A program made the position numbers and the translations under genes. Below, in pieces: positions 22,036 through 62,583 of a stretch of DNA of 64,000 nt; the first letter of the stretch is position 1; every line of letters begins with the position of its first letter. Below the pieces are notes generated by a model, which was given only the letters and a program-made list of their open reading frames with translations, had not been told where the DNA came from and searched no databases. Source of the DNA: a virus (taxonomy: Duplodnaviria > Caudoviricetes); the IMG/VR virus record IMGVR_UViG_3300020048_000106, positions 1 through 64,000 of that record. The stretch is one strand, 5' to 3'.

Positions 22036-22059
22036 AAATGTCTCGTCGCCGAGACATTT
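22036..22059. repeat. palindrome copy 1, AAATGTCTCG-TCGC-CGAGACATTT
   Basis: Perfect 10-bp arms; 22-bp core identical to the copies at 39080 and 60948. Confidence 0.9.
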
Positions 22060-22804
22060 TCAGCCTGCCACACTTCGCCAACTTACCGAACTTCACTCGA
22101 ACAGTCCGGAAATCCTGGTTAGTTGCCGTTTTGGCCAGTTTCAAGACCCCAAAACCGTAAAAAATAAAACCTCAATTTTGTGGATTACGACGTGCGGGAT
22201 ATTTACTGTATGGAACCCGGCGCGGCGGGGCTGGCGGATAACTTTTGGCGGTCGTTGGGGCCCCCTTTCGTTGTTGTGCGGTCGATCGTCATCGTCCATC
22301 GAGCGTCTTCGGCCGTGGTGGCTGTCAGCTTGGCACACTTACCATCGTTGTCATGCCTTGCCCCCCTCCATGGTCGCTGTGTGCTGCGCAAAATCCTGCC
22401 GATTCCCTATGGATTGGGTAGGATCTTGCGCGCGTGGTCGTCAAGGCCCTGCTCGTGGCGTGTGTGCGTGGTGCTCGTGGCCTAGTGTGTGTGCCCTCGT
22501 GCCCTCGATGCGTGTGTGTGTGTGCGTGGTGTAGGCGGAAAGCCGATGCGGTGATCGGGTCGTCTCCCCGACCATGGTCAAGCGCACCCCCACCCTGTCC
22601 CCCTTCCACCTGCAACCGTGATCGTCTTGTTGTTCGGCTTCTTGGCGGCCGTGGTGATCGCTTCGGGCTCGTTGTGGCGGATGTCAGCGGCGCTGGGGAT
22701 CGGCTTGGCGGTGGCCAGTCTTGGCGGTTGTGCGGCAGTTTGCGGGGCGTGATCGGTATCGGTGTCGGCCGAGGGCGTGGGCGAAAATAGGTCTGTTGTC
22801 CAGC

Positions 22805-22846
22805 TGGGGATCGGTGTAGCGGCCGTGGGGATCGGTGTAGCGGCCG
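22805..22846. repeat. 21-bp tandem direct repeat, two copies
   Basis: TGGGGATCGGTGTAGCGGCCG twice in tandem. Confidence 0.9.
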
Positions 22847-22973
22847 ACAATCCGACTATTTTCATCGGATTGCGTCAACGCTGTGTTGACTATTGGCGGT
22901 TGGAAGCCGAAGATATGGGTGCTGGATACCCCAGCGGTTGAAACGCTCTCTATCTCCCTTCCACCCAAGGAAC

Positions 22974-23249
22974 ATGACAATGGATAAGAACGAACTGAAG
23001 GCTTCCGTTTACGCGATTCTCGGTACTCTCGTCGAGGTCGGTGGCTCATCCCCAGCGTCTCACCTGTATTTGTGTGTCGGTGGTGATATGCAAAATTGGG
23101 AGCTAGTGCGGGGCGTGCTGCTCAATGCCGGGCTGGTGACGATCGCTCCGTCGCATCTGGTTAGCTTGACCGCTCGTGGTCAAGAGTTGGGCGAAGCGAT
23201 CAACAAGGCTATGGCGGATGTCGTGGCTGAGCGGTCGGCAGCTGTTTGA
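22974..23249 (+). CDS. small winged-helix-like early protein
   Basis: ATG 22974/22980 after AAGGA; first gene of the early region. Confidence 0.55.
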   Translation: MTMDKNELKASVYAILGTLVEVGGSSPASHLYLCVGGDMQNWELVRGVLLNAGLVTIAPSHLVSLTARGQELGEAINKAMADVVAERSAAV

Positions 23250-23290
23250 CGGTTGACTCGGTGTTCTCTCTCTCCCTTCACACAAGGAAC

Positions 23291-23701
23291 ATGACAATGG
23301 TTACTGTACTCTCCCCGAAATGCCCGAAGGAATCGCCGTGGGGCGCGGTTGACAATCCCCCCACCGAATTGCTTCCGGGCATGTTTAGCGTCTCGACGCC
23401 GGGTCATGGCGGGATCTGGTTGGCCCCTGATCTCGCCAAGGTGGCCGAGGCTGTTATGGGCTCGATCATGCCTGATTGGCGGCCGTTCACTCGGTCGTGG
23501 TCGTGGCTTGAGGAAGATTGCGACTGGGTGGTTGCTGCCCTCACCTTCCCCGGCGGGTTTCGTCCTGATGCGGTCGCCTATGCGATGCGAGCGGTTTCGC
23601 AGTCTGGGTATTTGTCGGCCGATCCTGAATTGTTGGCGGCGTTCTGGTTGGCCCCTGCCGGCCTGGCGGTGATCGCCCGTGCGAACGACTTGGTTGTCTG
23701 A
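23291..23701 (+). CDS. DUF7007-like protein
   Basis: SVSTPGHGGIWL and WLEEDCDW motifs. Confidence 0.65.
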   Translation: MTMVTVLSPKCPKESPWGAVDNPPTELLPGMFSVSTPGHGGIWLAPDLAKVAEAVMGSIMPDWRPFTRSWSWLEEDCDWVVAALTFPGGFRPDAVAYAMRAVSQSGYLSADPELLAAFWLAPAGLAVIARANDLVV

Positions 23702-23794
23702 TCGTCCGGTTCGAGCGCGAGGGGGGTGCTAGTTGGCCCCCTGAGCGCCCGGATCGTCCGGTTCTGTCCTGTCTCTTGAAACACAAGGAATTGA

Positions 23795-24265
23795 ATGATG
23801 GCTGCAACGAAACGAGTTTACCGAACGCCAATTGGCCAGTGGTCGTACGTACGCGAGTCGGCCGGGGCGCCGCGAGTGGCTACCCGCATCACCGACACTT
23901 GGTTGGCGCGTGAAGCGACTAAATCACACTTCGCGGCCCTGCCTAACACAAAGCAGGAACGGTTCTGTGTGTTGACCCTCGACACAAAGGGGCATCCGCT
24001 GGAGTGGTACGTAGTGCATGTGGGTACGCTCTCTAGCTGTCATGCTCAGCCGGCCGACATCTTTCGACCCGCAATCCTCGACGGGGCCGCGAGTATCATC
24101 CTCGCCCATAACCACCCCAGTGGCGACCCGACCCCAAGCAGTGAAGATAAGCAGGTCACCGACCGGATGACGGATCTCGGCCGAATGATGGGGATCCAGA
24201 TTCTTGACCATATCGTCTATGGCGATGGCACGGGGCTGACGATCTCTATTCGCGATGCGTCCTAG
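23795..24265 (+). CDS. JAB/MPN (RadC-like) domain protein
   Basis: QERFCVLTLD, HNHPSGDPTPSSED, ILDHIV. Confidence 0.9.
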   Translation: MMAATKRVYRTPIGQWSYVRESAGAPRVATRITDTWLAREATKSHFAALPNTKQERFCVLTLDTKGHPLEWYVVHVGTLSSCHAQPADIFRPAILDGAASIILAHNHPSGDPTPSSEDKQVTDRMTDLGRMMGIQILDHIVYGDGTGLTISIRDAS

Positions 24266-24311
24266 AGGCGACACTGTGTCCCCTTCCACCCTCGAAACAC
24301 GAGAACAACGA

Positions 24312-25040
24312 ATGCCCAAGAAATACCCGATGTACCTGCCGCTCTCGCGTGGCAACTCGAAACTAGGCGAAGACGGGATCTGGCAATGGGGATTGCCGGC
24401 CGTCGCTACGTGCCCCGGCCGGTCGCCTGAATGCGTTCTGGCTTGTTACGCGCTGAAGCACCGATATCGCTTCCCCAACGTACAAACGCGATTGGAGGCC
24501 AACATGGCGGCGCGGTTGCATCTGCAAGACTGGATCGCGAGCGTAACGGCTCAGATTGCGATGCACCGAATCAAGGCTGTCCGTATTCACACCAGCGGGG
24601 ATTTTGATAGCGCGGCTTATGTCGATGCTTGGCGGGCGATTGCGAAGGCCCGGCCGAAAACCCGGTTCTACGCCTATTCGCGTTCGTGGTCGGTCGATGA
24701 TCTCGCGATGCGATCATCCTTGCGAGCGTTCGCGCGGCTGAAGAATGCGCAGCTATGGTTGAGTTTTGATCGCTCCATGGAAACCCCTCCGCGATGGGCT
24801 GATTGCAAACGGGCGTACATGGCGGTGGATGATACCGACATTCCGGCCAAAGGATCGGCCGATATGGTCTTTCGCGTGAGACGCAAGACAAAAGCGGTTC
24901 GGATCGGCGGGATTGTCGTTTGCCCGGCCGAGCGCGAACGGGCCGCGAAAGCGACGTGCGAAACCTGCCGACTGTGCATCGATCGGACTGATTGGGTAGA
25001 TCGGGCGAACGCAAAGCCGAATGCCCTGCCGGTTGTGTAG
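24312..25040 (+). CDS. GP88-like Fe-S/radical-SAM-related protein
   Basis: GNSKLG, TCPG..C...CYA, RIHTSGDF, YAYSRSW, CPAE..CETCRLC. Confidence 0.75.
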   Translation: MPKKYPMYLPLSRGNSKLGEDGIWQWGLPAVATCPGRSPECVLACYALKHRYRFPNVQTRLEANMAARLHLQDWIASVTAQIAMHRIKAVRIHTSGDFDSAAYVDAWRAIAKARPKTRFYAYSRSWSVDDLAMRSSLRAFARLKNAQLWLSFDRSMETPPRWADCKRAYMAVDDTDIPAKGSADMVFRVRRKTKAVRIGGIVVCPAERERAAKATCETCRLCIDRTDWVDRANAKPNALPVV

Positions 25041-25134
25041 CGTGCCATGGCGCGGTTCGCCCGGCCGTGATTCGTCGCGGCCGGTCCTACCCTGCTATGT
25101 CGCGGGAATTAACACAAGCCCTGGAGTAAGCCAA

Positions 25135-25497: not shown

Positions 25498-25531
25498 CCA
25501 CCCACCCCCTCGAAACACGAGAGACCGAACA

Positions 25532-25873: not shown

Positions 25874-25973
25874 CCGAAACCGGTTCGAACGCGGAGCCCG
25901 GCGCGATGGCGCGCCCGGCCGAGCGCCCGGACCGTCCGGTAACTGAAAGAGACTCTAACCCGAGGAAACGACA

Positions 25974-26894: not shown

Positions 26895-26989
26895 AAACCG
26901 GCTCGCACGTAGAGCCCGGCGCGTCCCCTCGCGCCGGGTGAACGTCTGCGCCGTTGCAGTTTTGAACCGTCTCACACAAGGAACCGACA

Positions 26990-27226: not shown

Positions 27227-27272
27227 TCTTTAGTTGACACCTACCCGAAACTCGAAACCCGAGGAAACGACC

Positions 27273-31581: not shown

Positions 31582-31601
31582 AGTGGAGCCGAAGGGAGTT
31601 G
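31582..31601 (-). mobile_element. candidate attP core matching the 3' end of tRNA-Ala or tmRNA
   Basis: Minus strand CAACTCCCTTCGGCTCCACT = partial T-loop, T-stem 3' strand, acceptor 3' strand with U70 and A73; 97 nt upstream of the integrase. Confidence 0.6.
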
Positions 31602-31697
31602 CATTGTACGAAACTTTTTTCTGGTTTTTTCCGCCACGGCCCGAGCCGTGAGGTAAATCACCAATCGACAACTCTTCACACTGGACAGGCACCATCC

Positions 31698-32576
31698 ATG
31701 CTCATCAGCGACTACCTTGATTCCGTCTACGTCCCGTCGAGATTGCTCGACGCGAGCCCTCACACGGTCCGGTTGTACCGGTTATCCATATCAGCCTTCG
31801 CCAAAACGATTGACCGGCCGCCCACTCTCGACGATCTGACGAACGATCTGATCCGATTGCACCTGGCGAAGCGGATGTCCGCTCGACGCTCCCCAGCCAC
31901 CGCAAACAAGGACAGAGCCCAGCTGCTCGCTATCTGGCGGCACGCGACGACGCACGGGTACAAAACCACATGGCCGGATGTCCGTGAGCTACGCGAGCCC
32001 CAGCGGGCTCCTGTGGCGTGGTTGCCCGGCGAATGCGGCGTCCTGCTCGCCCAGTCGTGCCGCGAGCGAGGGCGGATCGGTGGTGTGCCGGCCGGGCTCT
32101 TCTGGAACGCCCTGCTCCTGGTGCTTCTCGATACCGGGGAGCGGATCGGTGCGGTGATGCAACTGCGGTGGGATTGGTTGAGCCGCGACGGCGGATTCCT
32201 CGCAATCCCTGCCGAGGCGAGGAAGGGGCGGACTCGCGACAAAGTGTTCCGCCTGAGCGACGCTACGGGTGTCGCGATCCAAAAGCTGCGAGAGTATCAA
32301 CCCGGTCCGCTCGTGTTCGCCTGGCCCCACAACCGGGGATGCCTTTGGCGGCGGTTTGGGATGGTCCTGTCTCATGCTGGGTTGCCGGCCGATCGGAAGA
32401 GCAAGTTCCACCGGTTGCGAAAGACAGTTGCCACCGCAGTCTACGCGGCGGGTGGTGATGCTCAGCGTGCCCTCGATCACCGGGACGCGCGGACAACCGA
32501 ATCGTATCTCGACCCGCGCATCACGTCTGACACCCGCACCCCCGAGCACGTTCAGGCCTATCGCGACCGGGACTGA
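31698..32576 (+). CDS. int: tyrosine integrase
   Basis: N-terminal core-binding helices; DTGER (R), HRLRKT (HxxR), LDH..TTESY (H, Y). Confidence 0.9.
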   Translation: MLISDYLDSVYVPSRLLDASPHTVRLYRLSISAFAKTIDRPPTLDDLTNDLIRLHLAKRMSARRSPATANKDRAQLLAIWRHATTHGYKTTWPDVRELREPQRAPVAWLPGECGVLLAQSCRERGRIGGVPAGLFWNALLLVLLDTGERIGAVMQLRWDWLSRDGGFLAIPAEARKGRTRDKVFRLSDATGVAIQKLREYQPGPLVFAWPHNRGCLWRRFGMVLSHAGLPADRKSKFHRLRKTVATAVYAAGGDAQRALDHRDARTTESYLDPRITSDTRTPEHVQAYRDRD

Positions 32577-34656: not shown

Positions 34657-34839
34657 TCACAACGAGTCCCTTGGCAACCGTCGGTATTGCGGCTTTCGCC
34701 CACCGCCGGCTGACTTGGTAAAGTGGTTGGATGTCCGCCGCTTCCGCTTCCGAGCGGCTGGTCGAGTGTCTGCGGAAGCAACCCCGCAGTAGTCAAATCC
34801 GTATCCGCACGCGACGATGATGAAGTAAAGCGGGATCAC
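34657..34839 (-). CDS. small hypothetical protein
   Basis: 60 aa coupled to the recombinase stop. Confidence 0.3.
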   Translation of the reverse strand: MIPLYFIIVACGYGFDYCGVASADTRPAARKRKRRTSNHFTKSAGGGRKPQYRRLPRDSL

Positions 34840-35501
34840 GCCTGATCGCTCCCGTACAAATCACGGAAATCGTCGTCGTTCGCCAGCGCGTGGGCGTAAA
34901 TGTTTGTGGTCCCAACGCTCGCGTGACCGGCCGCGTCGCGCACCTGGGACAGTGACCGACCCGTTGCGATCGCGTGGCTGCAGAACGAATGCCGGCCCTG
35001 GTGGATCGACACTTGGTTGGCACGATCCTCGCCGAGTGGGGTCAAGGCGGTCCGCCAGTGGTGCCGGACGTTGTCCCAGCTCAGCCGCTCGCCGGTTTTC
35101 TTGCCGCTGAGGCTGCAGACGAACGGGTCGGTCGGCTGGGCACCCATCGCGATGCGACGCTGATACCAAGCCGCAACGTCAGCCATGGCGAAGCGATCCC
35201 ATCGCAACCGGACGCGACGCCCGTGCCGCTGGCCGGTGGATGATGCCTTAGTGATTGCGGCCCGAATATGGATGCTTGGCCGGCTGCCGCTCAGGGTGAT
35301 GTCTCCCATGTTCAAGCCGACGATCTCTTTCCGCCTGAGACCGTAAGCTGACGACAGGCGGAAGACGATCATGTTCAGTTCGGCCATCTTGCTCGGCCGT
35401 TTCCGTTTGCCCGGCGCTGCCTTGGCACGCATCCACGCCAAGCACGCCAAAACCTCATACCCTTCCAAAATCCGTGATGTGTCAGTCTGCGGCATTGTCA
35501 T
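34836..35501 (-). CDS. second tyrosine recombinase, catalytic domain only
   Basis: ATG 35501/35495 after AGGAG; YGLRRKE (R), HQGRHSF (HxxR), GHASVGTTNIY (H, Y); no N-terminal core-binding domain. Confidence 0.85.
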   Translation of the reverse strand: MTMPQTDTSRILEGYEVLACLAWMRAKAAPGKRKRPSKMAELNMIVFRLSSAYGLRRKEIVGLNMGDITLSGSRPSIHIRAAITKASSTGQRHGRRVRLRWDRFAMADVAAWYQRRIAMGAQPTDPFVCSLSGKKTGERLSWDNVRHHWRTALTPLGEDRANQVSIHQGRHSFCSHAIATGRSLSQVRDAAGHASVGTTNIYAHALANDDDFRDLYGSDQA

Positions 35502-35527
35502 TCTCCTGTGTGAAGGACTGCGGATGG

Positions 35528-35556
35528 ATTCTAACAACGGGGGACGCGGTGTCAAC
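35528..35556 (-). promoter_or_regulatory. promoter of the second recombinase with TTGACAC motif
   Basis: GTTGACACCGCGTC; TTGACA-N16-TAGAAT. Confidence 0.7.
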
Positions 35557-36216: not shown

Positions 36217-36851
36217 TGCTCGCACCTCCGAAACTCGACTACCCAAACCCAAGGGTTGGCGGCCCATGATTCGGGGCCGTTAATCGAACGCCATAGCTCC
36301 ATAAAGGCAGCAAAGTAAGAACTCTTCAGCGGATGGACCTGCATGCCGTTGATTTTGCGCGGGCTGAGGTCGATCCGCTCGACGCCTTCGGCCATCGCGT
36401 CCGCTTCGCTGATGTCGTGCAACCGCTCGACGCGAACGCCGGTGATCTCCAGCGTGATGCGCGAGGCCCAGCGTGGCATGTGGATCGATGGCTTCCACTT
36501 GCAAGCAATTACGGATTGGCTTGGGTAATTATCGGCTTTGTAAACCGCACCGGTTTCAGGCGATGGGTCGAACGTAGACATCGGCGCCCACGTCTCCCGC
36601 ACCCAAAGCCGATCGCCGGGCTTGCCGTAGGGGCATTTCAAATAGTTGGCCCATTCCTTTACGCGACTCACGCCGACGCCCAGCCATCCATCTGCACAGA
36701 TATTTCCCTCCCAGCCGAGTGCCTCGTGGTCGCCGAAATGAACCATACTCGGCTGCGGCTTGATGATCCGCCGCGTCTGCGTCTTGCGACCGTCAAGGAT
36801 CGCTCGCACCATAAGGCCGCTGAATAGGATCGGACGTTCTTTCATTGTCAT
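36213..36851 (-). CDS. ASCH/PUA-like phage protein
   Basis: ERPILFSGLMVRAILDGRKTQTRR, GDRLWVRETW, PSIHMPRWASRI, NPWVWVVEF. Confidence 0.85.
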   Translation of the reverse strand: MTMKERPILFSGLMVRAILDGRKTQTRRIIKPQPSMVHFGDHEALGWEGNICADGWLGVGVSRVKEWANYLKCPYGKPGDRLWVRETWAPMSTFDPSPETGAVYKADNYPSQSVIACKWKPSIHMPRWASRITLEITGVRVERLHDISEADAMAEGVERIDLSPRKINGMQVHPLKSSYFAAFMELWRSINGPESWAANPWVWVVEFRRCEQ

Positions 36852-38516
36852 CGTGTCGCCCCTTGCCGTTCGCGGATCTGGTTTTCCTCAGCCTTGCGGT
36901 CTTTCAAGAACTTCCCGAAGCTGTTCTTCGGGTTCTCGATCGCGTGGGTGATCGCAGCGCTCGCCGATCTCTTGTTCATCGTTGACACTTGGGCGTCGGT
37001 GAACCCGAGCTTGCCAAGCATTCGCGACTGGGACTCGGTCACCGGCTGGCGGGTCATGTACCCGGGCATCGCACACGATGTCGGAACTGTGGAGAGGTCG
37101 TACAGCGTTCCGCCTGTTCGCTGGAGCTCGTACCGGACCCCGACCGTGACCTTCTTGCGTCGCGCTTCCTCGATTCGCTTGGCTTCCTCCTGTGCTGCCG
37201 CGATCGCTTCGAGTGACGACCCGTCGAAGTCGTTCTTCTGCATCTCCTTCGCGCGCTCGAGCGTTTCTTCTGGGATGTTGCCGGCCAGGATGTCGGTCGT
37301 GCAAATTAACTGGTGCCTTCCCGCTTGGCCGATGAAGTCAAGGACATGGCAGTCTGGCTTCGCACTCGCCTTGATCGCAGCGATTCGCGACGCGGCATCC
37401 ATCCCTTCGTCGTCGATCGTTCCCGGAAGCGGCCGAGTGCCGCGGCCCACCATCTGGGTGTAGAGCGCGCGGCTCTTGGTCGGGCGCCCGATCGCGATCA
37501 ACCTGACCCGGGGAGCGTCGAAGCCTTCGGTGGCGACCCCGCAATTCACCAGATACTGGATCCGGCCGGCTTTGAAGTCACTCACGATCTGCTTGCGTCG
37601 CGGGTCTTGCGGGCTGAGCGACCCGTCAATGGCCATCGCAGTATCTGACAACACCGACCCGAACTCGCGGAAGTGATAGTCGCGGATCAACTCAGCAAGC
37701 CGGTGGGCCTGGTGAACGGATGCCGTGAAGACGATCGCCTGTTCGCCCTTCGCAACCTGGACGATTGGCTGAGCCATCGCGTGGAGCACTTCTTCGGCCT
37801 CCACCGCAACGGCCAGCTCGGCGTCGACCAAGTCACCGCCGCGCGTCGCCATCTGAGAGAAATCGAGCCCATCAATCCTTACGAAATGCTGGACTGGCTC
37901 AACCAGATACCCGTTTTGAATGCCCCAGAGGATGTCATAATTTCCGACAACCTGCTGGAAGACACACCCCATCCCGATCCCGTCGAGGCGATCGGGCGTG
38001 GCGGTCACCCCGACCACTCGCAAGTCGGGGTTGTTTTTCAGGAAGTAATCGACCACCCGTCGGTACGTTTCGGCAGCGGCTCGGTGGGCTTCGTCGATCA
38101 GGATCAGGCCGAAGTCCTTGGGATCGAACTTCTCGAACCGGTAGAACCCTTTGCTGCGGCTGTTCAAACTTTGGACGGACGCGACGACGATTCGATGCCT
38201 GGCACCGAACCGGTCCGCACGCATCGCCGCCTGTTCCAGCCCGACCTCTTCGTCGCAAATGTGTTCGAACGACTTCAGCGCCTGTTGATTCAGCTCAAAA
38301 CGGTGCGCTATCATCATGATTCTCCCGCGCGGCCAATGCCTCGCGAGACCGCCCATCATCACGGTCTTCCCGAGCCCGGTCGCTGCTACAAGCAAGCACG
38401 ACCGGGTCGTCTGGTGGTCCTGCTGGAGTAATACGGAAGGCACCGAAGATGTCGGCAAGGGCGTCGAGCTGGTAGTCTCGGAATCGAACAGGCTCTGGTT
38501 TAGGTCCATTGGTCAT
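36848..38516 (-). CDS. SF2 DEAD/DEAH-box helicase, N-terminus frameshifted
   Basis: ATGLGKT, DEAH, TATPDRLD, EGFDAP, QMVGRGTR in 36848..38509; Q-motif RFRDYQ is in the 38295..38516 frame. Confidence 0.85.
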
Positions 38517-38525: not shown

Positions 38526-39485
38526 TTAGCGTTGGTGGTTGATCGATCTCTGGGCTGATTTATTCAACCAGCCCATGTTTCCGCAGTCCGGGCATTTTTT
38601 GCCCTCACACTTTGGGCACGGCATTGCGGGCAGGTAGCCCGACAATGCGTTCGCGGCCGACTCGAGATGCCGCAGGATCGAGTCCTTGCGTGATGTCACG
38701 ATGTCGAGCCCGTGTAGTGGTGGCAGGTCTCGGAGCGACTTCATGGCGTTTCTGATCTGCTGCAGCACCTTCTGGCCATGCACGCCGTTCTCGAGGGCTC
38801 GCTCGACTTCCTGCATGGCTTCGGACAGGACTGGCTTAGCTGCTGCTTCTGCGGCCTTCTTGGCTTCTTCCTCCTTCGCCTTCTTCTTTGCCGCTTCCTC
38901 CTTCGCCTTCTTTCGGGCTGCCCGCATGGTGATTGCTCCGCCGTTGGCAATTGCTTCAGCCGACAGCTCGGCGACAACCGCGGCTGCCGCGGCTGCGGGA
39001 AGGCCGACAAGCTCAGCGGCAGCCGATGGTGAAATAGCTGCCATCATGGCTGTTGCTTCTGGTGTCGATTCTTGGACAGAATGTCTCGTCGCCGAGACAT
39101 TCTGAGCCGGGTCATCAACAGGGCCAGGCATAGCTTCAGGTTCGGGCGTTTGCGTCTGCGCGGCGATTGTCTTCATGAACTCATGCGACTGCCTGAGCCT
39201 GTAAGCCGTCTGCCGATGAACGCCCAGCCGTTCGCTGCAATAGTCAGCAAACCTGCCGTACCCGACCGTCTTATAGAGCCGACGGTCGATAATCTCCGCG
39301 ATCGCCGCGGCGCTCTCCCATGCCGCATCGCCATACTTTTGCAAGATGGCCTCGCACTGCGCGAGCGCGTCGGTTTCGTTGTCCGCAGCCGTAAAGACCA
39401 ACTGCGGGACTTCGTTGTCGTTCACGATCTCGCCTTTGATCGAGGCTGCTGGGATGGTGATGCTGGCAATGGGAGTGACTGGCAT
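38526..39485 (-). CDS. DNA-binding phage protein (helical N-domain, C-terminal Zn finger)
   Basis: IIDRRLYK..YGRFADYC.ERLG..RQTAYRL; CPKC..CPDC; carries palindrome copy 2. Confidence 0.65.
   Translation of the reverse strand: MPVTPIASITIPAASIKGEIVNDNEVPQLVFTAADNETDALAQCEAILQKYGDAAWESAAAIAEIIDRRLYKTVGYGRFADYCSERLGVHRQTAYRLRQSHEFMKTIAAQTQTPEPEAMPGPVDDPAQNVSATRHSVQESTPEATAMMAAISPSAAAELVGLPAAAAAAVVAELSAEAIANGGAITMRAARKKAKEEAAKKKAKEEEAKKAAEAAAKPVLSEAMQEVERALENGVHGQKVLQQIRNAMKSLRDLPPLHGLDIVTSRKDSILRHLESAANALSGYLPAMPCPKCEGKKCPDCGNMGWLNKSAQRSINHQR
39061..39103. repeat. 43-bp repeat containing palindrome copy 2
   Basis: Identical to 60929..60971; includes AGAATGTCTCG-TCGC-CGAGACATTCT. Confidence 0.95.
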
Positions 39486-57400: not shown

Positions 57401-60298
57401 GCCCGACTTCTTTAAGAGTGTCGCAGGATCGATTGGTTTCGCAAAATCCGGCGCATCCCACATCGCCCTCGCGGCCTTGGCTACCAAGCCCTCAGTCGGT
57501 GCATCTTCAGAAGCGGCAACCGGTTTTGCGGGCTTGCCGAGGCTGACCGGAGTTGGGGCGGGCTTGGCTTCGGGCTTCGGGATCGCCGGCGTTTGCTTCA
57601 CGGCATCGTCAATGACGTAGTCGGCAATGCCTTCGAACCGCTTCCAATTCACATCCTTCGGACGCCGGGCGTTGTGCTTCGCGACCCACCCGCGGGCCTC
57701 AGCCTTGACCATCGTCGCGGCCTCGGCTGGATCCATGCCGCCTTGCACCTTGCGAGAGAACGATCGCAGGGCGTCTGCTTTGATGCGGTCGTTGATCTCA
57801 GCCGCGCCGACCGCTGTACCCCTACCACCCTCAAGTTGCTGAGCCTGGGCTTCGAAGGCGTCAGCCTTAGAGTCTGCCCATGCGGTTCGGCTGGGAGCGG
57901 CTGGTCCCTCGCTCTTGTTCCCCGCCTCTCGCTCGGCCTTCTGCTGCTCGTCCAATCTCACTTGAGCGTCGTAGGCACGTTTCCGGTCTTCGTACTGCCG
58001 CTGCTTTTTCGGATCAACTGCTGGTGCCGGGGTCCATTTCTGTTCCCCGGTATCCGACAGATTGACCCCCTTCCCGACGGATTTTGCGTGCTCGACTGCC
58101 TTGGTGAACGAGTCGAACCCGATCCCGTCGACATCGTAGGTTTTTCCGTGAGGCTTCTCGGCCTTCGGTGGCGGTGCCTGGCCGAGCCGCACCGGGGCGG
58201 GAGAAACTTCGGGGGTAACTTCGGGGGTAACTTCGGGGGCGACTTTTGGTGCGGTTCCACCAAATGCAGGGCCAACGCCAGCCTTAGAAGGCGAAGGCGT
58301 CGGTGGGCTGATTAGATTTCGCCTCTGCTCAATCGCAATGTCAAGCCTTCCTGTTGCAACCGCTTCTTGGTTAGACGCAACCCATTGGTCTAGTGCTTCT
58401 AGCGACTTGATGTTCGCGATTGCAGCAAGGTTTTCAACGTGATTGATAGCTGCGGCTGTGCTGCCTTTGCCTGTGTCGTCAACTTGCGGGGTAACTTGCG
58501 GGGTGGCGGCGGCGGAAGCCACATCTGCGGATAGCTTTGCCAGCGATTCCGATGCCGCTTGCTTGACCTTCCGGTTGGCAAACATCTTGTCGGTCAGCAA
58601 GTCGGCGTAAATCTGATCCGCACTCAACGGGCCTTGATTTCTCGTCAGTTTGACGACCTGATTGGCGTAATGCCTGACCCGCTCATTGAATCGCGGGCGC
58701 TCGTCGGGGTCGGACGGATTATTTGACCACGAGGTAAACACATCGTCCGTGTCCATGACCGACAGGTAGGACGACAGGTCTGGTCCTGCGGTTTCGGCCG
58801 GAACCGAATCGGAGACCGGTGCGGTACCGACTGTTGGGGGAATCGCCGGATTTTCCGGCGTTTCCTGCGGTCCTGGCGGTTCTAGTTCTGTGGTTTCGGC
58901 CGGAACCGGAACCGGAACCGGAGACTCGGTGTCAACCTCTGCATCAACCTCAGCGTCCTCGGGCGTCGACAGATACACCCGGCCGTCCTTCGTCGATTCG
59001 TACCGACCGCCGATCACAGCCTGTTTGGCAACGCCCGCGATCCCGTCAACGAAGCTCGCCGGGTCCATTCCGAGACGGGCGATCTCAATGCCGATTTCCT
59101 CGAGCGTGCGGGGCTTACCGTCCGCGAGGATGCCGTCGATCGTCTGGGTCTGCATCGGCATCGGGAACCGTTTCCCGGTGGCTGGCGGGGCTGGTGCGAC
59201 GGGCGGCTCGCCTGGGACGGTGGGAGGAACTGCTTCGGATCCGGCCGGCGCGGGGGGCGGTCCCGGTGGCTGGTTCGGGTCGACCGGGGGCGGCACCGTG
59301 TCAACCGGTGGGGCAGCGGGATCGGGCAGGGGACCGTTCGGATCGATCGACGTTGCGGCCATCTCTTTGAGGGCCTTCTCGCGATCCTTCTTGGCCTTTT
59401 GGTCCTGGTACAGCTTCGCGCCTTCGGTGATCGCCGAGAATCCGAGGGTCATGGCGAACGTGGACGCCGCCACGTCCCTGGTTTTTTCCAGGATCGCGCG
59501 AGGCGTGAGTTCCTCTTTAGATGTCCCGTCCATCTCCGCGAACATCGTCTGCAGGACTTCGGCCGTCAGTTCTTCGGGGAGCTCCTGCCCAAACGCACCG
59601 AGGACTCGCTTGCCGACATCCTTGAGCCCTTGGCCGATCGACTTCGCCGCGGCTTCCTTCGTCGTGCGGCCGAGCATCCCCTCGATGCCGGGGATTTTCA
59701 ACGCCTGGAAGATCATCATGGCGGTGGCGTCGCTGGCACCGCTGAGGGCCGCGTTGCCCGCCAGTACGTTGCCGCGTTGCCCGCTGTCTTTCCGGTCGAC
59801 GTAGGCGCTCTGCGTGGACGTCGTGGTGATCGCCGCGGCGGTGGCCGCCAATCCGACCGGCCCGCCCAGCACGGCCGGAACCGAGAGCGGCGCTGACTGT
59901 AACGCGGAGATGACGGGGTCAATGACCTGTGCAGGAACGCCCACGTCTTGGGCAACCTCGGACGCTCGGCCCGCCGCCGCGCCGCCCTGAGCCTCTGCCC
60001 ATCGCATCGTCGAGTCGGCCCTGTCGCCATGGCCAGTGACACGCTCGAGCAACGCCACGGCCTGGCCGCTGAGTGGTTCGGCGACTGCCCTGTCCAGCGA
60101 ATGCCAAAATCCAGAGTCTTTGAACTCTTCCTGGGCTTGCTGGGCGAACTGCTTCCGCTCAATCAGCGCACGCAGATCCTCTTCGTCGCGGGTGCCTCGC
60201 TTGACTCCCCTTCCGAGTTTGCCGGCCGCTCGGTTGGTGAGGGGCTTGTCAATCCACGAGGGATCTACTTTGTCTTCGTCTTCTTCGTCGATCGGCAT
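45434..60298 (-). CDS. 4954-aa polyvalent, probably virion-ejected protein (DarB-like: N6-MTase plus Strawberry-notch helicase, ART, LPD-type domains)
   Basis: Uninterrupted ORF; QFSTPP/LEPSGGMG/NPPF MTase about 52780-53600; GDGTGVGK/FDESH/SEAGGTG Sno helicase about 49150-52290; YRG..ENE ART about 54010-54380; helical C-terminal domain. Confidence 0.9.
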   Translation of the reverse strand: MPIDEEDEDKVDPSWIDKPLTNRAAGKLGRGVKRGTRDEEDLRALIERKQFAQQAQEEFKDSGFWHSLDRAVAEPLSGQAVALLERVTGHGDRADSTMRWAEAQGGAAAGRASEVAQDVGVPAQVIDPVISALQSAPLSVPAVLGGPVGLAATAAAITTTSTQSAYVDRKDSGQRGNVLAGNAALSGASDATAMMIFQALKIPGIEGMLGRTTKEAAAKSIGQGLKDVGKRVLGAFGQELPEELTAEVLQTMFAEMDGTSKEELTPRAILEKTRDVAASTFAMTLGFSAITEGAKLYQDQKAKKDREKALKEMAATSIDPNGPLPDPAAPPVDTVPPPVDPNQPPGPPPAPAGSEAVPPTVPGEPPVAPAPPATGKRFPMPMQTQTIDGILADGKPRTLEEIGIEIARLGMDPASFVDGIAGVAKQAVIGGRYESTKDGRVYLSTPEDAEVDAEVDTESPVPVPVPAETTELEPPGPQETPENPAIPPTVGTAPVSDSVPAETAGPDLSSYLSVMDTDDVFTSWSNNPSDPDERPRFNERVRHYANQVVKLTRNQGPLSADQIYADLLTDKMFANRKVKQAASESLAKLSADVASAAATPQVTPQVDDTGKGSTAAAINHVENLAAIANIKSLEALDQWVASNQEAVATGRLDIAIEQRRNLISPPTPSPSKAGVGPAFGGTAPKVAPEVTPEVTPEVSPAPVRLGQAPPPKAEKPHGKTYDVDGIGFDSFTKAVEHAKSVGKGVNLSDTGEQKWTPAPAVDPKKQRQYEDRKRAYDAQVRLDEQQKAEREAGNKSEGPAAPSRTAWADSKADAFEAQAQQLEGGRGTAVGAAEINDRIKADALRSFSRKVQGGMDPAEAATMVKAEARGWVAKHNARRPKDVNWKRFEGIADYVIDDAVKQTPAIPKPEAKPAPTPVSLGKPAKPVAASEDAPTEGLVAKAARAMWDAPDFAKPIDPATLLKKSGRHLSLIDRASGDQAIASFVTDPEGVVLATQGRKYTPGEIALNERLIENLFSNGVGSVYIGVPQASTPQLIEALSDRGYSIEKNDGKGHKYRIDPKQAVSLGKPKAAKPDAPWAKSTTEDESRWFGTEVSVEPGSKNEDQYDGKVVRVLNGGDVVEVQPQGQDGTFRVPSARVAVKKVVDSKAEPELTEMTAEDEEHLFGKKPEPKQPKTFEDLKSLTFDDIADGEETEGVARNRGKTYRAKKFKVTDADGKEIEAKVRIDSDGEVQVMDLGRTKEQREKDSAAWKKRVQTLRDRIEQVPFTHGEPPHGTGKGRTIVQVMKAAMEKQSGPALAGAAREHGLLTDGHVLVRLSDKDRAKAAAAKVGIPADYPAMAKKTLEDFMVMPGYAEAAKIVAYRETFGEAEYEAAGTTKEKSGEIEAKYILGGTGGTQWVVEAHYHETVMKMHPKAIPHVVRQKGKNPPPVFYRVGDETVGVVMPIDYDVPFLQFKESAVEPAAEAETESDSDTPSEADLDKMADEMWSDDDVDSTPPPPPAPPKAKPEPAKPSKRIFAVMTSDGKIHADPKASMHYDVVQNAGLESWDIIDGGFIVDGKYLMSLSDGGYAAMEGEPEQLSEVQRYTDEYNAKAKETAPPRAKISPKAPRADGAGNPSAKDKAKAAESTAEALLDELVSKARGRLGMGVDPEMASIAIRYVKAKIEAGTYRFVDFAEHVLASAPREVIDRLRPYLEMAWKVAHGEGLTEDSGGDLASYGGKRRERFRPVGATNNRDFANRPTDEAAKAALDTGKRDRFGAARSLNPGQTVALRIDIPAFLNHGTYVVSIHEDKGTAGNQVGSVAGYDTAARLSGSVRFSVQENAAGRIAEGKNKHPIATVKGKFDPSRDTPDDIENWHAIGMNPAKAPFFYDKKTGQEVSLANDAISIGNTVFVREIVEYGNRNAGNMPIPDVGFHSMLEAIPEGIRANIQKQGRESLLKDARHDVIAGNSLRRAMENVIDGKRPGPDANITEHERHLKAWLLLNEVNEAEPSQVTMYRGDRTITAGVDNRNVRVGDEILIGGKKANNGITANLKVAKKFADGVLYEIEPGVKAARVSTAEPQEFTGSVTGENEFIAAGTFTVTGIKEVGDNTVIQVKQSSSPNVSLGTLDRMTAEARREVSRLLKELSAASKRSMSSTLPDPELMGIAINLAKAMIKERGLTFAGFVQGVYDKAGMELTQKLGVYLEAAWRRAIKLGLTTDPVGKTSDILFAQSPKVDQKGKQGDPQTRLATKVRDALEAGTAMTSGSFFAMANEEFGGSRAGGDYGDSEATDALELGVNLYLQGKTDPNVTADEAKETVRRIQEIMELVPRQRGRTGEKSSMQQFSTPPAYAYVTAWIANPTKGDVVLEPSGGMGGIAVHAANSGATVYVNELSESRAEGLQQLDLEGVFTEDAEQIGAILADKMPPPTVVLMNPPFSRAGKRMGDTMIQGTDRKHIAEVMALVPEGGRVVAIVSAGLHKQSDGMTRWLADMPHRVTANIEVARDVYRGYGTEFPTRVLVIDKVPRGDSKTINQTATDLFDLIDKAQEARDARPATERAPAQPDRETTSDEDGRGDQPGDNARDPVPDDVPRDPSGETGPDREDVGGGRDDNRSGSDDANDAPPAAGGNARVQMGGRKSGRAPRKSGGGGGGKRTRGSVPGPSRKSGGVPRTGVTKAKAVTQPRPASKASALTESTFEDYTPSVVVAGAKKHPAPIVESAAMAAVSSPKINYEVDVAPGVFEGYVTEDGAYVGLSDIQLEAIALAGHAHSQMLPSGERRGFLIGDGTGVGKAREALGIINDDFIKRGDKRRKAVFVTKNDALIGDAVAEWVGVGGDPADFHPMSSFQNGSKIELESGIVALGYDTLGTGASKTAKDKGNTMSRLEQIVDWVGKDFDGVVIFDESHMMGNSLDSGDGQTAKSAAQRALAAVDLQKQLPNARVVYLSATAATEVVNLAYADRLGLWGQGTQFADKRTFISEIEAGGVAAMEKVAADMKAMGMYVARNLSFDDGTPEGRVEFDRVRHELTADQERIYDKLSEAWIKVLERIDAALDLTENTKGRKWIISAFWGANQRFWNDVITGMTAPALIKGIEKDLAEGRSVLVQLTATHGAATERAIAGRKDDQEFEDLDISPRRGLMQLIEKSFPTQRHEKYTDDNGNTRERPVVDAAGKPVHDPQAVAMKNKLLQEVGSLEVASRSPIDMIIDHFGEEMVAEISGRNKRLTYDGDKKLMEQRRSKGAVKKDRNAFMRGDKRILIFSEAGGTGTSYHASLSHKNQQRRSHYLWQAGWKAPTAIQGLGRGHRSNQASAPLIHLIEPGLEGYKRFISTIARRLGQLGALTKGQRDAGDGGLFNAKDNLESTEAVRALSQFLTDANRGNIEGIDRAFLMTRMGFDNLPPGVIGPDAVNMTSFLNRLLNLPPKQQATVFSEFSNRLDTIVEKAIQDGTLDQGMETVKAEKIVKASEQTVYEHPTGAQTKWVQLTLTKKTSPLSYEGAIRTAATFTGTLHSFVRSKTTGKVFMVIDRNLVTQTKDGKVTHDATFVGVLGRSYGHNLEQLDNAKYWETLPRGDVKSPLDAKNAWDAEFNAAPKEIDETLNLLTGALLPVWKKVIGGHSVVRALTQDGETILGRIMDDRYIDRTLQNFGVRRDGEAALQYSPKEAMQAAYEGGIVTLNNGWTVKKRKIDGEDNIEIHGADYSSKQLIENAGGFQRMIDYKTRFFIPFGDTQGQTLSNLADSFAIESVTLPQGVSRASLGPAAKTPPTPPSPPTPPTPKPPAESGMAKQIRQGDVIPPAKDSAVPPPPGVDAFIAPDNDKTGSLSSAKRQVLSATDLIDDYAVESEDVNTHVGPDKALEKFWESARRGLSRKRMWERIKETWEATPDFIARNFGRGGMEHLPRTKQFGEGRSLLRVWKDAVEIAKWKTGELLRRTTGGLSAADYDLFSRAVIFRNFRNREGALPFELDRPRAEAELARIEAKVLKNPKVQAALEFREKWHGEMKEAYIYWHQQIGIDMTDRLKKEDYFHHQVLWHYRMKEPTTGSSKDAQVDMQRGWLRHETGSPLAINANYVQAEWEVATQMIADTIRAEALAKLTTEYDTMPELERKAKIKNMHLLYGGKKQYEHVLYLREMRAQADPEDRKIWSQQLRDLDPLFGFRQDIAIKSNAILNEEPWLAALPSASFFKELRRISVDPKDPSAEMANGLLGAIKRQEIFIEESIGKKNYQTWRTVMPDTHRSAAIRPGRALYQAYTIPEQLANELMANHAAVVGIQADVLREVLVMGHEYTPIVVPKEIAAQMEEMSKIQSNSLAAVVGGWWRRNVTFNFKRFALLSPERFVKYNLRSLSEIDKVVNLMPKAASVPLMIQAGKELFAVYRQHDKITPEVRLWMELGGAQSLHLPNEMGDLSALKEFERFFEDESGWDKVPGKLWAGYWRKAGALSNYRESILRYSAFLAYRKELKENGGKPISYGGSNPAEIDGIRDIDRKAMRLSADLLGDYGDLSPAGAMLRDAAFGLPFVSFTELNFRTYMRGIANLANHEQSATAAGRTLAKALGVTAVAQSPYLAYRLGRIYLLAFGAQAVLTTINNLAFADEEDELPDEIKDRPHLTLGRNADGSVRYFDRLGTSTDFMDWLGLDSLDKMAMQVATGRMTLSDVAKEMVMSPTNKFVQSLSPAVKVPMGWMTGKDTFPDVRKSRTIRDMGEFTFQAAGLGNTYKIVMGRPNKGAGEWLQSLAWSTISSGSAAYFRTRDEIQRVTQRGGMSRDSITPRDEALYYYKQALRFGDTSAAKKYEADYKAAGGTDKTIMQSLKMLHPLGTLSLPNEIRFRATLDARGEEELAKAEAYFYRDLVTPEQAEEIKAHRENRVKDLAKTVMTHAGRPNPDTNSDYETAATKYEADYADLKAWLDENRDKPDVRLAVRGVLRSDRFQTIEEGNTTPQGVNESGRHYQERVRRAAQDSANAKRWRKWFLDTQPKALN
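52336..52707 (-). CDS. overprinted 123-aa protein in the +1 frame of the giant gene
   Basis: AGGAGG SD at 52714-52719, 6 nt before ATG 52707; 24 of the first 29 codons end in G/C while the host frame is A/T-ending and low-complexity. Confidence 0.7.
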   Translation of the reverse strand: MQDQQLNELPLNRIAKRLLMKMDAEINPEIMHATQFLMMYLEIPVAKRGRIGKMWGGEETIIEVVAMMPTMPHQQQAAMLASKWEGGNLEERLENLAEAVAGKGPEGAFLVLLESLGAYLEQE

Positions 60299-60339
60299 GG
60301 ACGCACTTGCGGTTGGGGTTGTGGATGACGCGGACTATT

Positions 60340-62583
60340 TTACCGTCCAAAGCCAAGACTGCTACCGAGCCTCAGACCGAGATTTGCGCCGGGAGCAACG
60401 GAGGACTCAAGGAATGTTTTGTTGGTCCTCAACATGCTAGCCTTGGGAGGGTCGTTTGGCGGGACTCGTTTGGTTCGCATCGCGGGGTCAAGGTAGAACG
60501 TCCCTGGCGGAAGCTGCTTGATCTTCTTGGCATCTTCTGGGTCGTTCTCGTCCAGCCGCTCGAGGTCTCGCAACGCATTCTGCTCTGCCGGCTCCATCAT
60601 CGCAAAGTGCATTTCGCCATCGTTGATCGTGTCGGCAACCGACTTCGCCGCCTCTCCGATGGGATCGGCAACGCCTCGCCGCTGCAGCTCTTCGATCGCA
60701 TCTCGCGAGATGTATCGTGCTGGGTGGTGGTCGTCCTCAACGCCCTTCATCGCTTCTGCCAGTCGCTTCAGTTGGGGCGGGGCCTTTTCGCCCATCCCCA
60801 TCGCCTGATCGAACAACTGTCGCACCTGTCCGATGGCTGGATCCTTCTGGAAGTATTCCTCATCCAGCTCCGCGGTCGTCTTGGTGACTGGCATGTCGCC
60901 AGCAACCGGGGGGGCGGCTGCGGGTGTCGGTGTCGATTCTTGGACAGAATGTCTCGTCGCCGAGACATTCTCCTGGGGGTTAGCCGCTGCTGGCGGGGGG
61001 GCGACTGCCTGACCTGGTTGCGAGAACTGATGCTGCAGCTCGAGCATCCGACGCATCTCCGCCTTGACATCTTCCTCCTTCATCGCTGGCGCGACCGGAT
61101 CGTCGATATTTCTCGGGTCTGCCTTCCACTTTTTCTGAAGCCGTTCCTCGGCCCCGGAATAATCCTTGAGGAACTTGTCGTAGTTCTTGTCTCCCCCACC
61201 GTACATCTTGTTCCACTGCTCTTCGACCGTGGCGGCCGGGAGATCCTGGTTGGCCGCGCCCTTTGCTTCCTCGAGGGCCATCTTGCTCTCGACTGGGCGC
61301 ATGGTCCCGTCTGGCGAAATCCAGATGCCGACATTGCCGTCGATCTTGCGGTATGACCTCGCGATGATTGCGTCGGCGCTGGGCGGTTGCTCCTCGTATC
61401 CCGCCAAGTCGGCTTCCGCGAACCGGTTCATGAACTGACCGGCCATGTCAGAATACTGCTCGGGCTTCATGTCAGGCTTGGCCGCGGCAATCGATCGACG
61501 CTCGTCTGCCAGCTGCGCGAGAACCCGCTTGCCCTCGGGGCTGAGGCTCATTTGACGCGCTGCCTTCAGCATGTCGTTGATGTTGGTGTCCATCTCGCGG
61601 GTCGCTTCGAGCTTCCAGTTTACGCCGGCTTGTTCGGCGTCACTGAATCGCTTTTTGTCCTGGCCTTCCGCGAGGTCCATCCGCCGCTCGTCGAGACCGA
61701 ACGTCTGCTCCCGCAGCCGCATGTTATCCAGCGACTCCAATTCGCTCATGTCAGCTGCACGCTTACGCAAGCCAAACTCGTCCTGGCGGATACCGAACTC
61801 GTCCTGACGCAACGCGAACTCGTCCTCGTACCGCCGGTCGCTCGTGTCGGCCGCCCGACGACGCATTTCCAGTTCTTCCAGGGAGAGTCCTTGCGAGAAC
61901 TGCTGACCTTCTCGACGGAATCCCATTTCCTCGCGGAACCGCCGGTCTCCAGTGTCGGCAGCCTGCTGCCGCATCTCCATCTCTGCCAGCGTCGCCCCTT
62001 GCGAGAACTGTTGTCCTTCTCGACGGAATCCCATTTCCTCACGAAACCGTTGATCGCCAGTCGCCTCAGCTCGCCGCCGCATCTCGAGCTCTTCGAGCGA
62101 CATCCCTTGGGAGAATTGCTGCCCGTCACGTCGTAGGTTGAAGTCTTCCCGCTGCCTGGCCTCGGTCGATGAGAGGGCACGATCGCGGTAGTCCTGATCC
62201 TGCCGCGCGGATCGCTCCCGGAAGTTCTGGGAACGGTCTTGGAGCGAGTAGTCGGCCCGGGCCCGCTGCCGATCCAGTCCGAGCCGAGCGTTCTGCAATG
62301 CTGCCTGCTGAGTGAACTGCTCCCGTTGCAACTGGGCTTCCATTGCCGCGCGACGCTCTGCCGCCTCGCGATCGAGCCCGGCGGTGGCCGTGTTGGCTGC
62401 TGCCTGAAACACAGCCGGATCGAACGTATTGACCACGCCCGGTCGGTTGGTGTGGAGCTGCGCGATCAATGCCGGGTCTGCCCCGTTGCTCGCCAGCAAT
62501 CTTGTGAGTTCTTGGACCCCCGGACCGGCCATGGTACGTCTACCGCGGCCGCCAAGCGGCGTCTGGTTCATTGTCTTCGCCAT
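60340..62583 (-). CDS. putative ejection/internal virion protein with coiled-coil repeats
   Basis: 747 aa Q/R/E-rich, directly upstream of the giant gene; carries palindrome copy 3. Confidence 0.7.
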   Translation of the reverse strand: MAKTMNQTPLGGRGRRTMAGPGVQELTRLLASNGADPALIAQLHTNRPGVVNTFDPAVFQAAANTATAGLDREAAERRAAMEAQLQREQFTQQAALQNARLGLDRQRARADYSLQDRSQNFRERSARQDQDYRDRALSSTEARQREDFNLRRDGQQFSQGMSLEELEMRRRAEATGDQRFREEMGFRREGQQFSQGATLAEMEMRQQAADTGDRRFREEMGFRREGQQFSQGLSLEELEMRRRAADTSDRRYEDEFALRQDEFGIRQDEFGLRKRAADMSELESLDNMRLREQTFGLDERRMDLAEGQDKKRFSDAEQAGVNWKLEATREMDTNINDMLKAARQMSLSPEGKRVLAQLADERRSIAAAKPDMKPEQYSDMAGQFMNRFAEADLAGYEEQPPSADAIIARSYRKIDGNVGIWISPDGTMRPVESKMALEEAKGAANQDLPAATVEEQWNKMYGGGDKNYDKFLKDYSGAEERLQKKWKADPRNIDDPVAPAMKEEDVKAEMRRMLELQHQFSQPGQAVAPPPAAANPQENVSATRHSVQESTPTPAAAPPVAGDMPVTKTTAELDEEYFQKDPAIGQVRQLFDQAMGMGEKAPPQLKRLAEAMKGVEDDHHPARYISRDAIEELQRRGVADPIGEAAKSVADTINDGEMHFAMMEPAEQNALRDLERLDENDPEDAKKIKQLPPGTFYLDPAMRTKRVPPNDPPKASMLRTNKTFLESSVAPGANLGLRLGSSLGFGR
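60929..60971. repeat. 43-bp repeat containing palindrome copy 3
   Basis: Identical to 39061..39103. Confidence 0.95.
61830..62140 (-). repeat. 108-bp (36-aa) coding tandem repeat, about three copies
   Basis: FSQG..L.E.EMR..A..T.D.RFREEMGFRREGQQ; nucleotide copies at 61891 and 61999. Confidence 0.85.

Follow-up and report, generated by a model that had tools for sequence, protein, structure and literature searches.

Why should one perfect palindrome stand three times in the genome of a tailed phage, twice inside unrelated genes? The question is raised by a 64,000-nucleotide (nt) stretch of DNA from a virus of the Caudoviricetes (bases 1-64000 of the 72,449-bp IMG/VR record IMGVR_UViG_3300020048_000106; hereafter, the window), in which a sequence-only reading had noticed three co-oriented copies of the repeat and had interpreted them primarily as targets of a tyrosine recombinase. 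We located the second copy in the gene of P0001, a protein with an N-terminal helix-turn-helix (HTH) domain, in codons of the linker that follows this domain; the third copy lies in the gene of another protein, P0002, and the first is intergenic (Table 1). Genes related to that of P0001 carry palindromes of their own at a corresponding position, and the arms of these palindromes covary with the recognition helix. On balance, we consider it probable, from the comparison of sequences, that the three palindromes are candidate docking sites for P0001, whose own gene would hold the original copy.

The element shared by the three copies is a 22-mer with 9-bp arms and a 4-nt centre (TCGC on the plus strand). 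Exact matches are located at 22037-22058, 39080-39101 and 60948-60969, with the centre in one orientation in all of them; no fourth copy was found across the whole 72,449-bp record, and the 22-mer had 0 matches in 100 dinucleotide shuffles (chance expectation, none). The 22-mer and its three co-oriented positions had been reported correctly in the sequence-only reading, but the perfect arms are longer than was stated there. Only eight perfect palindromes with arms of at least 9 bp are present genome-wide, and the three copies are the longest among them. At arm position 10, copy 1 has A:T versus G:C in copies 2 and 3, changed on both arms.

Copies 2 and 3 are in frame within minus-strand open reading frames (38526-39485 and 60340-62583) and encode an identical 14-residue peptide, in Pro/Ala linkers of two otherwise unrelated proteins, as had been noted before. 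They are parts of the same 43-bp patch, which consists of the palindrome and 19 bp of flank from the P0001 gene; in a wider alignment, 89% of 56 bp match. Copy 2 has its left flank (19 bp) in common with copy 3, and its right flank weakly (5 of 7 bases) with copy 1. The co-orientation carries little weight, because copies 2 and 3 represent one duplicated patch in genes of the same strand and only copy 1 is an independent trial (1 in 2). On the other hand, the identity of 22 bp across three copies with differing flanks points to sequence-specific recognition by one protein, for which P0001 is the obvious candidate. The earlier view of the repeat as a DNA-level, dyad-symmetric element resembling a protein-binding site is supported.

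P0001 and P0002 showed no significant match in Pfam, PHROG or NCBIfam, and the name 'ejection protein' previously given to P0002 finds no backing in these databases. A full HMMER scan with P0001 gave 421 homologues (E<=1e-3), for many of which the match was confined to residues 30-150. The N-terminal HTH domain is common to most of them, and many have the C-terminal zinc-ribbon domain as well. The closest relatives of the two proteins, P0004, P0005, P0007 and P0008, were available from Logan contigs as proteins only, and their palindromes were inferred by back-translation. P0005, 93% identical to P0001, keeps the peptide exactly. The linker of P0007, a homologue with 50% identity to P0001, carries a related motif at the same position, and its peptide can be back-translated to a palindrome with 16-bp arms (32 bp in all; null 0.2-0.5%). 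P0008 (44% identical) has a different, Gly/Pro-rich linker motif that allows arms of at least 12 bp at the same place (base rate 1% per window).

Because P0007 has the related motif at the same place, the palindrome segment appears to be native to P0001. Copy 2 is presumed to be the native, family-typical source copy, and the patch in the P0002 gene is read as a secondary copy taken from the P0001 gene; the flanks that copy 2 shares with each of the other copies fit two separate copying events out of that gene. P0004, 85% identical to P0002, has three substitutions in the peptide, which is yet better kept than the surrounding linker. It can be back-translated to a palindrome with 13-bp arms (26 bp, no spacer), a property shared by only 7% of all the replacements that could be made at the two altered central residues and by 2% of randomly chosen windows. 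By this comparison, the copy in the P0002 gene would predate the split from the relative that encodes P0004.

Through the N-domain alone, we fetched 80 IMG/VR loci of the P0001 superfamily. In 56 of these (70%), a perfect palindrome with arms of 8-14 bp (16-28 bp) is present within 28 codons after the HTH, whereas only 1.3% of 1926 random 84-nt windows from the same loci reach arms of 8 bp. The 56 loci hold 49 distinct palindromes, mostly without a spacer and typically with TGT or TGG ends and CAATTG or CCATGG centres. The arms vary between phages yet remain complementary, thereby re-coding the peptide, in proteins that are less than 50% identical to each other and carry different C-domains. 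As to conservation of the site in related phages, a check named in the sequence-only reading, the palindrome is thus kept at a fixed position, but the exact 22-mer had no match in IMG/VR.

The same pattern was seen in the proteins. At 11-19 residues after the helix anchor (34 residues in the case of P0001), superfamily members show motifs around a central Ile or Met. The residue pairs flanking this centre obey a reverse-complement codon rule, both the inner pairs (P-G, T-V, K-L, E-S) and the outer ones (S-D, G-P, C-H, L-N or L-S, A-A). Both pairs fit in 44 of 83 sequences, versus 4.4 +/- 1.9 after shuffling (maximum 13), and palindrome-compatible windows are about 3.5-fold enriched at the expected position (51 of 146 proteins, versus 23 in each of three control regions). 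Based on palindrome position and N-domain homology, P0001 is a member of this HTH family with an in-gene palindrome. In uncultured phages, the HTH-plus-palindrome module is also fused to Dam-type adenine methylases (693 and 367 amino acids, aa) or to DUF5131 (471 aa).

A looser search, for the arms with any 4-nt centre, retrieved 14 and 18 stretches from public genome and metagenome contigs. Most of them are unrelated one-off palindromes, and the centre found in this window is absent from all of these matches. The search led, however, to one recurrent group. Mu-like prophages of Betaproteobacteria carry the same arms in frame, at residues 122-128 of a 300-325-aa protein encoded directly upstream of a transposase and a MuB-like ATPase. 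The protein belongs to phrog_1748, the family of BcepMu gp10 and phiE255 gp41, annotated as DUF3102.

We collected 57 distinct genes of the gp10 family by protein similarity, with the palindrome ignored. Most of them have a long perfect palindrome after the recognition helix, with arms of up to 16 bp and often no spacer; that of BcepMu gp10 is a perfect 30-bp palindrome. The outer bases are conserved, and the inner 6-7 bp vary between phages, altering the peptide. Pairing held in 80% of cells, versus 30-40% with slid partners; two-sided changes were found in 145 cells versus 17-61, and the covariation score was 0.42 versus at most 0.15. No shuffle reached the observed values. Two central pairs switch together (T:A to A:T and C:G to G:C), so the symmetry runs through the centre.

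Several individual loci of the gp10 family deserve description. Locus L127 (BcepMu NC_005882, 6485-7438) and loci L049-L126, from Mu-like phages of Pseudomonas, Burkholderia, Ralstonia and Stenotrophomonas, have, in the gene that immediately precedes the transposase, a perfect, hypervariable palindrome that reaches up to 32 bp. In L083, from a clade without the palindrome in gp10, a palindrome with the arms found in this window is located in the linker of an Xre-type repressor gene (7106-7633, minus strand), after the HTH. An Accumulibacter prophage fragment (L012) has two copies in opposite orientation, at 692-715 and 4664-4687; a gp10-like gene contains one of them, and the other separates a convergent HTH_31 gene from a gene for virion morphogenesis. 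Apart from the present phage, no further single locus among those fetched showed more than one copy. In the literature on DUF3102, BcepMu and transposable-phage palindromes, we found no published function or palindrome of the gp10 family.

Which part of the protein varies together with the arms? We compared each N-domain column with the arm bases by mutual information, subtracting a shuffle baseline and without accounting for phylogeny. In the P0001 superfamily, seven of the nine top columns belong to the first ten residues of the recognition helix (positions 1-4, 6, 7 and 10). The gp10 family, analysed separately, gave the equivalent helix positions 1-3, 6, 7 and 10 as six of its seven top columns. 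Positions 1-4, 6, 7 and 10 form the face with which an HTH helix enters the major groove.

The AlphaFold model of P0001, built with 70 sequences, has a predicted local distance difference test score (pLDDT) of 87, and the residues encoded by the palindrome lie in a low-confidence, disordered linker. Residues 34-219 of the model matched the parS-bound DNA-binding domain of ParB with a VIA Z of 7.6 over 126 residues (root-mean-square deviation 4.3). Spo0J was matched with a Z of 6.9 and a Foldseek probability of 0.85, and Noc with a Foldseek probability of 0.84; the Foldseek E values were above 1. A structure model of the gp10 family was poor (pLDDT 64) and had no match in the PDB.

Considering the position fixed in the family, the complementarity of the arms and their covariation with the recognition helix, the palindrome is most likely P0001's own site. 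We propose that it would be the cognate dyad-symmetric site, on double-stranded DNA, of a dimer-type HTH protein whose model resembles ParB and Noc. The original site would lie inside the P0001 gene, in the codons just after the recognition helix, and the palindrome sequence would differ from phage to phage, along with the recognition-helix residues that match it. The present phage would have gained two further copies, one carried with 19 bp of gene flank into the P0002 linker and one placed alone in a non-coding gap, so that P0001 would be expected at three points of the circular map, separated by 17, 22 and 33 kb. Binding of P0001 to the palindrome, and the outcome of such binding, we infer from these patterns. 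Our preferred guess for the outcome is a loading or tethering point, through which the effector part at the C-terminus would be brought to the DNA of the phage itself; that relatives have fusions with a methylase or DUF5131 suggests this as the general role. Copy 1 may in addition indicate an origin-like or regulatory region, considering the skew minimum, the A+T-rich non-coding gap and the position of P0001 before a helicase gene.

Several observations weigh against this proposal. A second palindrome copy within +/-10 kb was found in none of the 56 related loci, so that occupancy of multiple sites is not the family norm and the two extra copies in this phage could be accidents. The mutual-information signal ignores phylogeny and the linkage of neighbouring codons, although columns encoded closest to the palindrome have lower scores than those of the recognition helix, a result that speaks against simple linkage. 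For a helical protein, the ParB-type matches are of modest strength, with Z below 8 and Foldseek E above 1; Raf1, not ParB, gave the top structural score (Z 10.4). The genome has no match to ParB_N, the CTPase domain (PF02195), and none to PF13614 (AAA_31), the sole model tried for a ParA-type ATPase. With hhalign, P0001 and the gp10 family showed nothing in common beyond 11 palindrome-coded residues; their link is only transitive, via phrog_1733, which is matched by two P0001-family members and by gp10 proteins, and phrog_15077. Should P0004 and P0005 belong to the same phage, the inner arms would differ between its two sites, and this would sit uneasily with strict sequence reading by one protein. 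Finally, the A+T-rich centres (CAATTG, CCATGG, AAATTT) would also favour cruciform extrusion.

The last point leads to the possibility that only pairing matters. The palindrome would then serve as a folded structure, hairpin or cruciform, whether in mRNA, in supercoiled DNA or in the single-stranded DNA of replication or packaging, with or without a structure-specific protein. The arms covary freely; single strands of the palindromes give stable folds (-11 to -14 kcal/mol, z -4.3 to -5.8), and A+T-rich centres within G+C-rich arms would ease extrusion. Minus-strand RNA of copies 2 and 3 would carry a GCGA tetraloop of the GNRA type, copy 1 looks terminator-like on the minus strand, and the stems of the gp10 family are followed by TTTGA or TTTTG. 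A hairpin loop, however, needs neither symmetry through the centre nor covarying central pairs nor the usual lack of a spacer. Nor would pairing alone make the arm sequence track recognition-helix residues, or keep three copies identical where any stem would serve. The three RNAs would moreover be unlike, because copy 1 lies in a plus-strand block and copies 2 and 3 in minus-strand genes, and Rfam searches (at the gathering threshold over the window, permissively over 21.7-22.5 kb) returned only a tRNA and noise. Taking both sides together, we think a purely structural element unlikely.

Two specific RNA roles were considered separately. Copies 2 and 3 have no T run and do not qualify as intrinsic terminators; in a scan with consensus terminators only copy 1, on the minus strand, passed, and the yield of the scan was no higher than in shuffles. 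A small antisense RNA transcribed from copy 1 and pairing with both mRNAs was set aside because relatives normally have a single copy with a symmetric centre.

Alternatively, the palindrome may be a selfish or mutational by-product, tolerated in a loop, kept symmetric by template-switch 'quasi-palindrome correction' and occasionally copied by ectopic gene conversion, with the extra copies or all copies functionless. In-frame palindromic insertions are known in Rickettsia. Here the patch in the P0002 gene carries 19 bp of hitch-hiking flank, both coding copies are in disordered Pro/Ala linkers, extra copies are rare in relatives, and the palindrome was lost in one gp10 clade. Such an origin is nevertheless distinctly unlikely. 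One fixed gene position is kept in about 70% of the family, among members below 50% identity with different C-domains, and palindrome and recognition helix covary. Even at no more than 85% identity, a relative still keeps the P0002 copy, and in L083 the gp10 gene has no palindrome, yet one with the same arms is found in the repressor gene. A mobile palindrome of the repetitive extragenic (REP), miniature inverted-repeat transposable (MITE) or Rickettsia palindromic element (RPE) type was also rejected: there are three copies only, and the family trait is bound to one gene position.

A role in replication was also considered. The O protein of phage lambda and G38P of SPP1 are replication organisers, and P0001 could be another, with copy 1 as the working origin and copy 2 as an ancestral in-gene box. 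P0001 is encoded directly upstream of a helicase in a recombination/replication cluster. Copy 1 lies in a 430-bp, locally A+T-rich non-coding gap, 115 bp from position 22173, the cumulative G-C minimum of the plus-strand block; in the segment 21500-28500, the GC skew changes from -0.08 to +0.1 at 22.2 kb within co-oriented plus-strand genes. The skew flip could mark an origin, but also a junction of modules with different ancestry, or reflect a mosaic origin of the genes. Each box is single and non-iterated, and copies 2 and 3 have no adjoining A+T-rich stretch for unwinding. In relatives the domain is joined to methylases, and the phages in which the gp10 family occurs replicate by transposition. 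We therefore regard initiator boxes as improbable. Around copy 1, DnaA-box-like 9-mers were within chance expectation and a sigma-70 scan found nothing. The AT skew also flips, at 22-24 kb.

As for the tyrosine-recombinase sites that had been the leading interpretation, in which an enzyme would pair directly oriented copies and excise circles of 17 or 22 kb, the phage does encode two tyrosine recombinases as claimed, and inverted arms around an asymmetric centre stand in one orientation, but the idea is highly improbable given that the perfect arms leave an asymmetric centre of 4 nt and not the 6-8 bp of such sites, that relatives' sites are mostly symmetric through the centre, without a directional spacer and single-copy as a rule, that the same arms occur in BcepMu-type loci where the annotated recombination enzyme beside the gene is a transposase (full records were not scanned for tyrosine recombinases), that the arms covary with the recognition helix of the HTH protein encoded across the palindrome, that excision would delete essential genes, and that the copies are at least 3.5 kb from either recombinase gene. 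It is correct that joining copy 2 to copy 3 by excision would yield an in-frame P0002-P0001 fusion; this follows from the duplicated patch and hence is no evidence.

The features of the genome are listed in Table 1. Open reading frames were called by a method based on G+C content at third codon positions (GC3), which gave three gene blocks.

Table 1. Positions of the palindrome copies, the genes that carry them and other features of the window; the last row refers to related loci
Feature	Position	Strand	Description
Copy 1	22036..22059	.	Perfect 10-bp arms, intergenic
Copy 2	39077..39104	.	Perfect 12-bp arms, 4-nt centre, linker codons of P0001 (residues 129-136)
Copy 3	60946..60971	.	Perfect 11-bp arms, Pro/Ala linker of P0002
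43-bp patch	60929..60971	.	Identical to 39061-39103; palindrome and 19 bp of P0001 gene flank
P0001, 319 aa	38526..39485	-	N-terminal HTH, disordered linker, helical C-domain ending in CxxC...CxxC zinc ribbon
P0002, 747 aa	60340..62583	-	Three 108-nt tandem repeats; adjoins 4954-aa giant gene
Superfamily 2 (SF2) helicase (ResIII/Helicase_C)	36848..38509	-	Directly downstream of P0001, same transcription direction
Small tyrosine recombinase	34836..35555	-	Candidate enzyme of the sequence-only reading
Second tyrosine recombinase, integrase-type	31599..32576	+	Found in the genome
Non-coding gap, ~430 bp	21944..22370	.	Within plus-strand early block; holds copy 1 and an A+T-rich stretch
Minus-strand block	1-11.7 kb	-	Major head protein, large terminase
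Plus-strand block, small early genes	12.1 to 31 kb	+	tRNA at 16.3 kb
Minus-strand block	from 32 kb	-	Small tyrosine recombinase, SF2 helicase, P0001, PD-(D/E)XK exonuclease, 4954-aa giant gene, P0002
Module fusions in relatives	L128 9977-12058, L143 9968-11071, L135 9800-11215		Dam methylase in two loci, DUF5131

Copy 1 is located 97 bp downstream of a promoter-like motif, TTGACACAGTG, at 21940. Eight strict TTGACAC-N1-3-GTG motifs (4734, 8674, 18179, 21940, 27201, 39792, 45437 and 59304) are oriented with the local genes and probably represent the -35 family of the phage's promoters; their spacing to the three palindrome copies is inconsistent. Just downstream of copy 1, a 30-nt block is repeated at 22957-22986, 23274-23303 and 24282-24311. 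With its AAGGAA, resembling a ribosome-binding site, and a start codon, the block heads three small plus-strand genes; the repeated blocks look like paralogous gene starts or a shared translation signal. The tandem repeats of the P0002 gene (61806-62129) are 71% and 65% identical to the first one and encode a 36-residue unit rich in Arg, Glu and Gln.

About 35 nt at the very end of the record recur at approximately 205-240 of the window, as was seen via a shared half-site match, and the protein table gives a length of 72,210 bp against 72,449 bp for the record, which IMG/VR labels as linear. Because of these two points, the record appears to be circular and closed, with an overlap of about 240 bp left by the assembly (window 1-245, record 72,205-72,449). 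A search of IMG/VR and JGI metagenomes for related loci with P0001, P0002 and their small alignments found no relative. Against GenBank phages, no match was obtained by megablast of 38-46 kb and 60.3-64 kb, or by tblastn and blastn of P0001, P0009, P0148 and one IMG/VR locus.

Beyond this phage, one may tentatively envisage a widespread 'self-addressed' module, in which a ParB-like HTH domain carries the palindrome it recognises in its own coding DNA, site and reader diversify as a unit, and fused effectors are delivered in cis, with the address tripled in the present case. Our literature searches turned up no phage HTH family described as having a palindrome at a fixed place among the codons of the DNA-binding domain. 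If the proposal is true, the codons for the DNA-binding domain in a large family of phage proteins contain the very DNA that the domain targets, and the symmetry of DNA dictates part of a protein sequence, such that a DNA-level constraint writes amino-acid covariation. The 49 distinct palindromes of the 56 loci would make up a natural library of matched reader-site pairs for studying the co-evolution of specificity, dozens of specificities having arisen as site and reader travel and recombine together. A first clue to function would also be gained for BcepMu gp10/DUF3102-type genes and for the N-terminal regions of some Dam methylases of phages, and three defined occupancy sites would be predicted in this phage, one of them at a possible origin-like region.

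How does the element compare with known systems? Like loxP (13-8-13), dif (11-6-11) and FRT, it has inverted arms and an asymmetric centre, and it occurs as direct repeats in a genome with two tyrosine recombinases; unlike them, it has a 4-nt centre, its family norm is a symmetric single copy, and it is associated with an HTH gene rather than a recombinase gene. The replication origin of lambda lies in O, and SPP1 has oriL in gene 38 plus a distant oriR, so that initiator sites are found inside their own coding sequence, in an inter-domain region. These origins comprise several iterons next to one another and an A+T-rich element for unwinding. Here, too, one site lies within the gene of the presumed binding protein, with a second site far away, but there is a single palindrome per site, and an A+T-rich stretch and a skew minimum are found near copy 1 alone.

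Among phages, BcepMu gp10 and phiE255 gp41 stand for a family of HTH proteins, about 300 aa long, whose genes have a perfect palindrome right behind the recognition-helix codons; some members have exactly the arms of this window. They differ from P0001 in having no significant direct sequence similarity to it, a coiled-coil C-terminus, a gene upstream of a transposase and usually a single copy. Cluster O mycobacteriophages have dispersed 17-bp palindromes, TGTTCGG-NNN-CCGAACA, predicted to be sites of a dimeric protein and mostly away from promoters (PMC4351075). These repeats are similarly dyad-symmetric, have TGT...ACA ends and are scattered through the phage genome; they occupy many positions and are not tied to a particular HTH gene, whereas here three copies are found, with the source in the gene of the presumed reader.

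The first parS was found inside spo0J itself, and the partition site mentioned as an alternative in the sequence-only reading comes close, because the protein encoded across copy 2 appears, from its model, to have a DNA-binding fold like that of ParB and Noc; what is missing is a match to ParB_N or to PF13614. Other differences lie in the position of the P0001-family site, fixed at one place in DNA-binding-domain codons and hypervariable between phages, and in the C-termini of the family, which vary (zinc ribbon, Dam methylase, DUF5131, coiled coil). Sequence similarity between P0001 and ParB is not detectable, and the fold match is modest. Sites of this kind are parS, TGTTTCAC-GTGAAACA, and the Noc-binding site NBS, TATTTCCC-GGGAAATA (PMC7383237), and the OB sites of KorB on plasmid RK2 (PMC11790492). 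As in these systems, a dimer-type HTH protein of apparently similar fold is associated with a palindrome of at least 14-16 bp with TGT...ACA-like outer bases, and several sites are dispersed over the replicon, many of them within coding sequence. The three copies described here fit the parS type in these respects, being palindromes of about 16 bp or more that occur several times and also in genes, and in ParB, Noc and KorB, as would be the case for P0001, specificity is set by a few re-programmable recognition residues.

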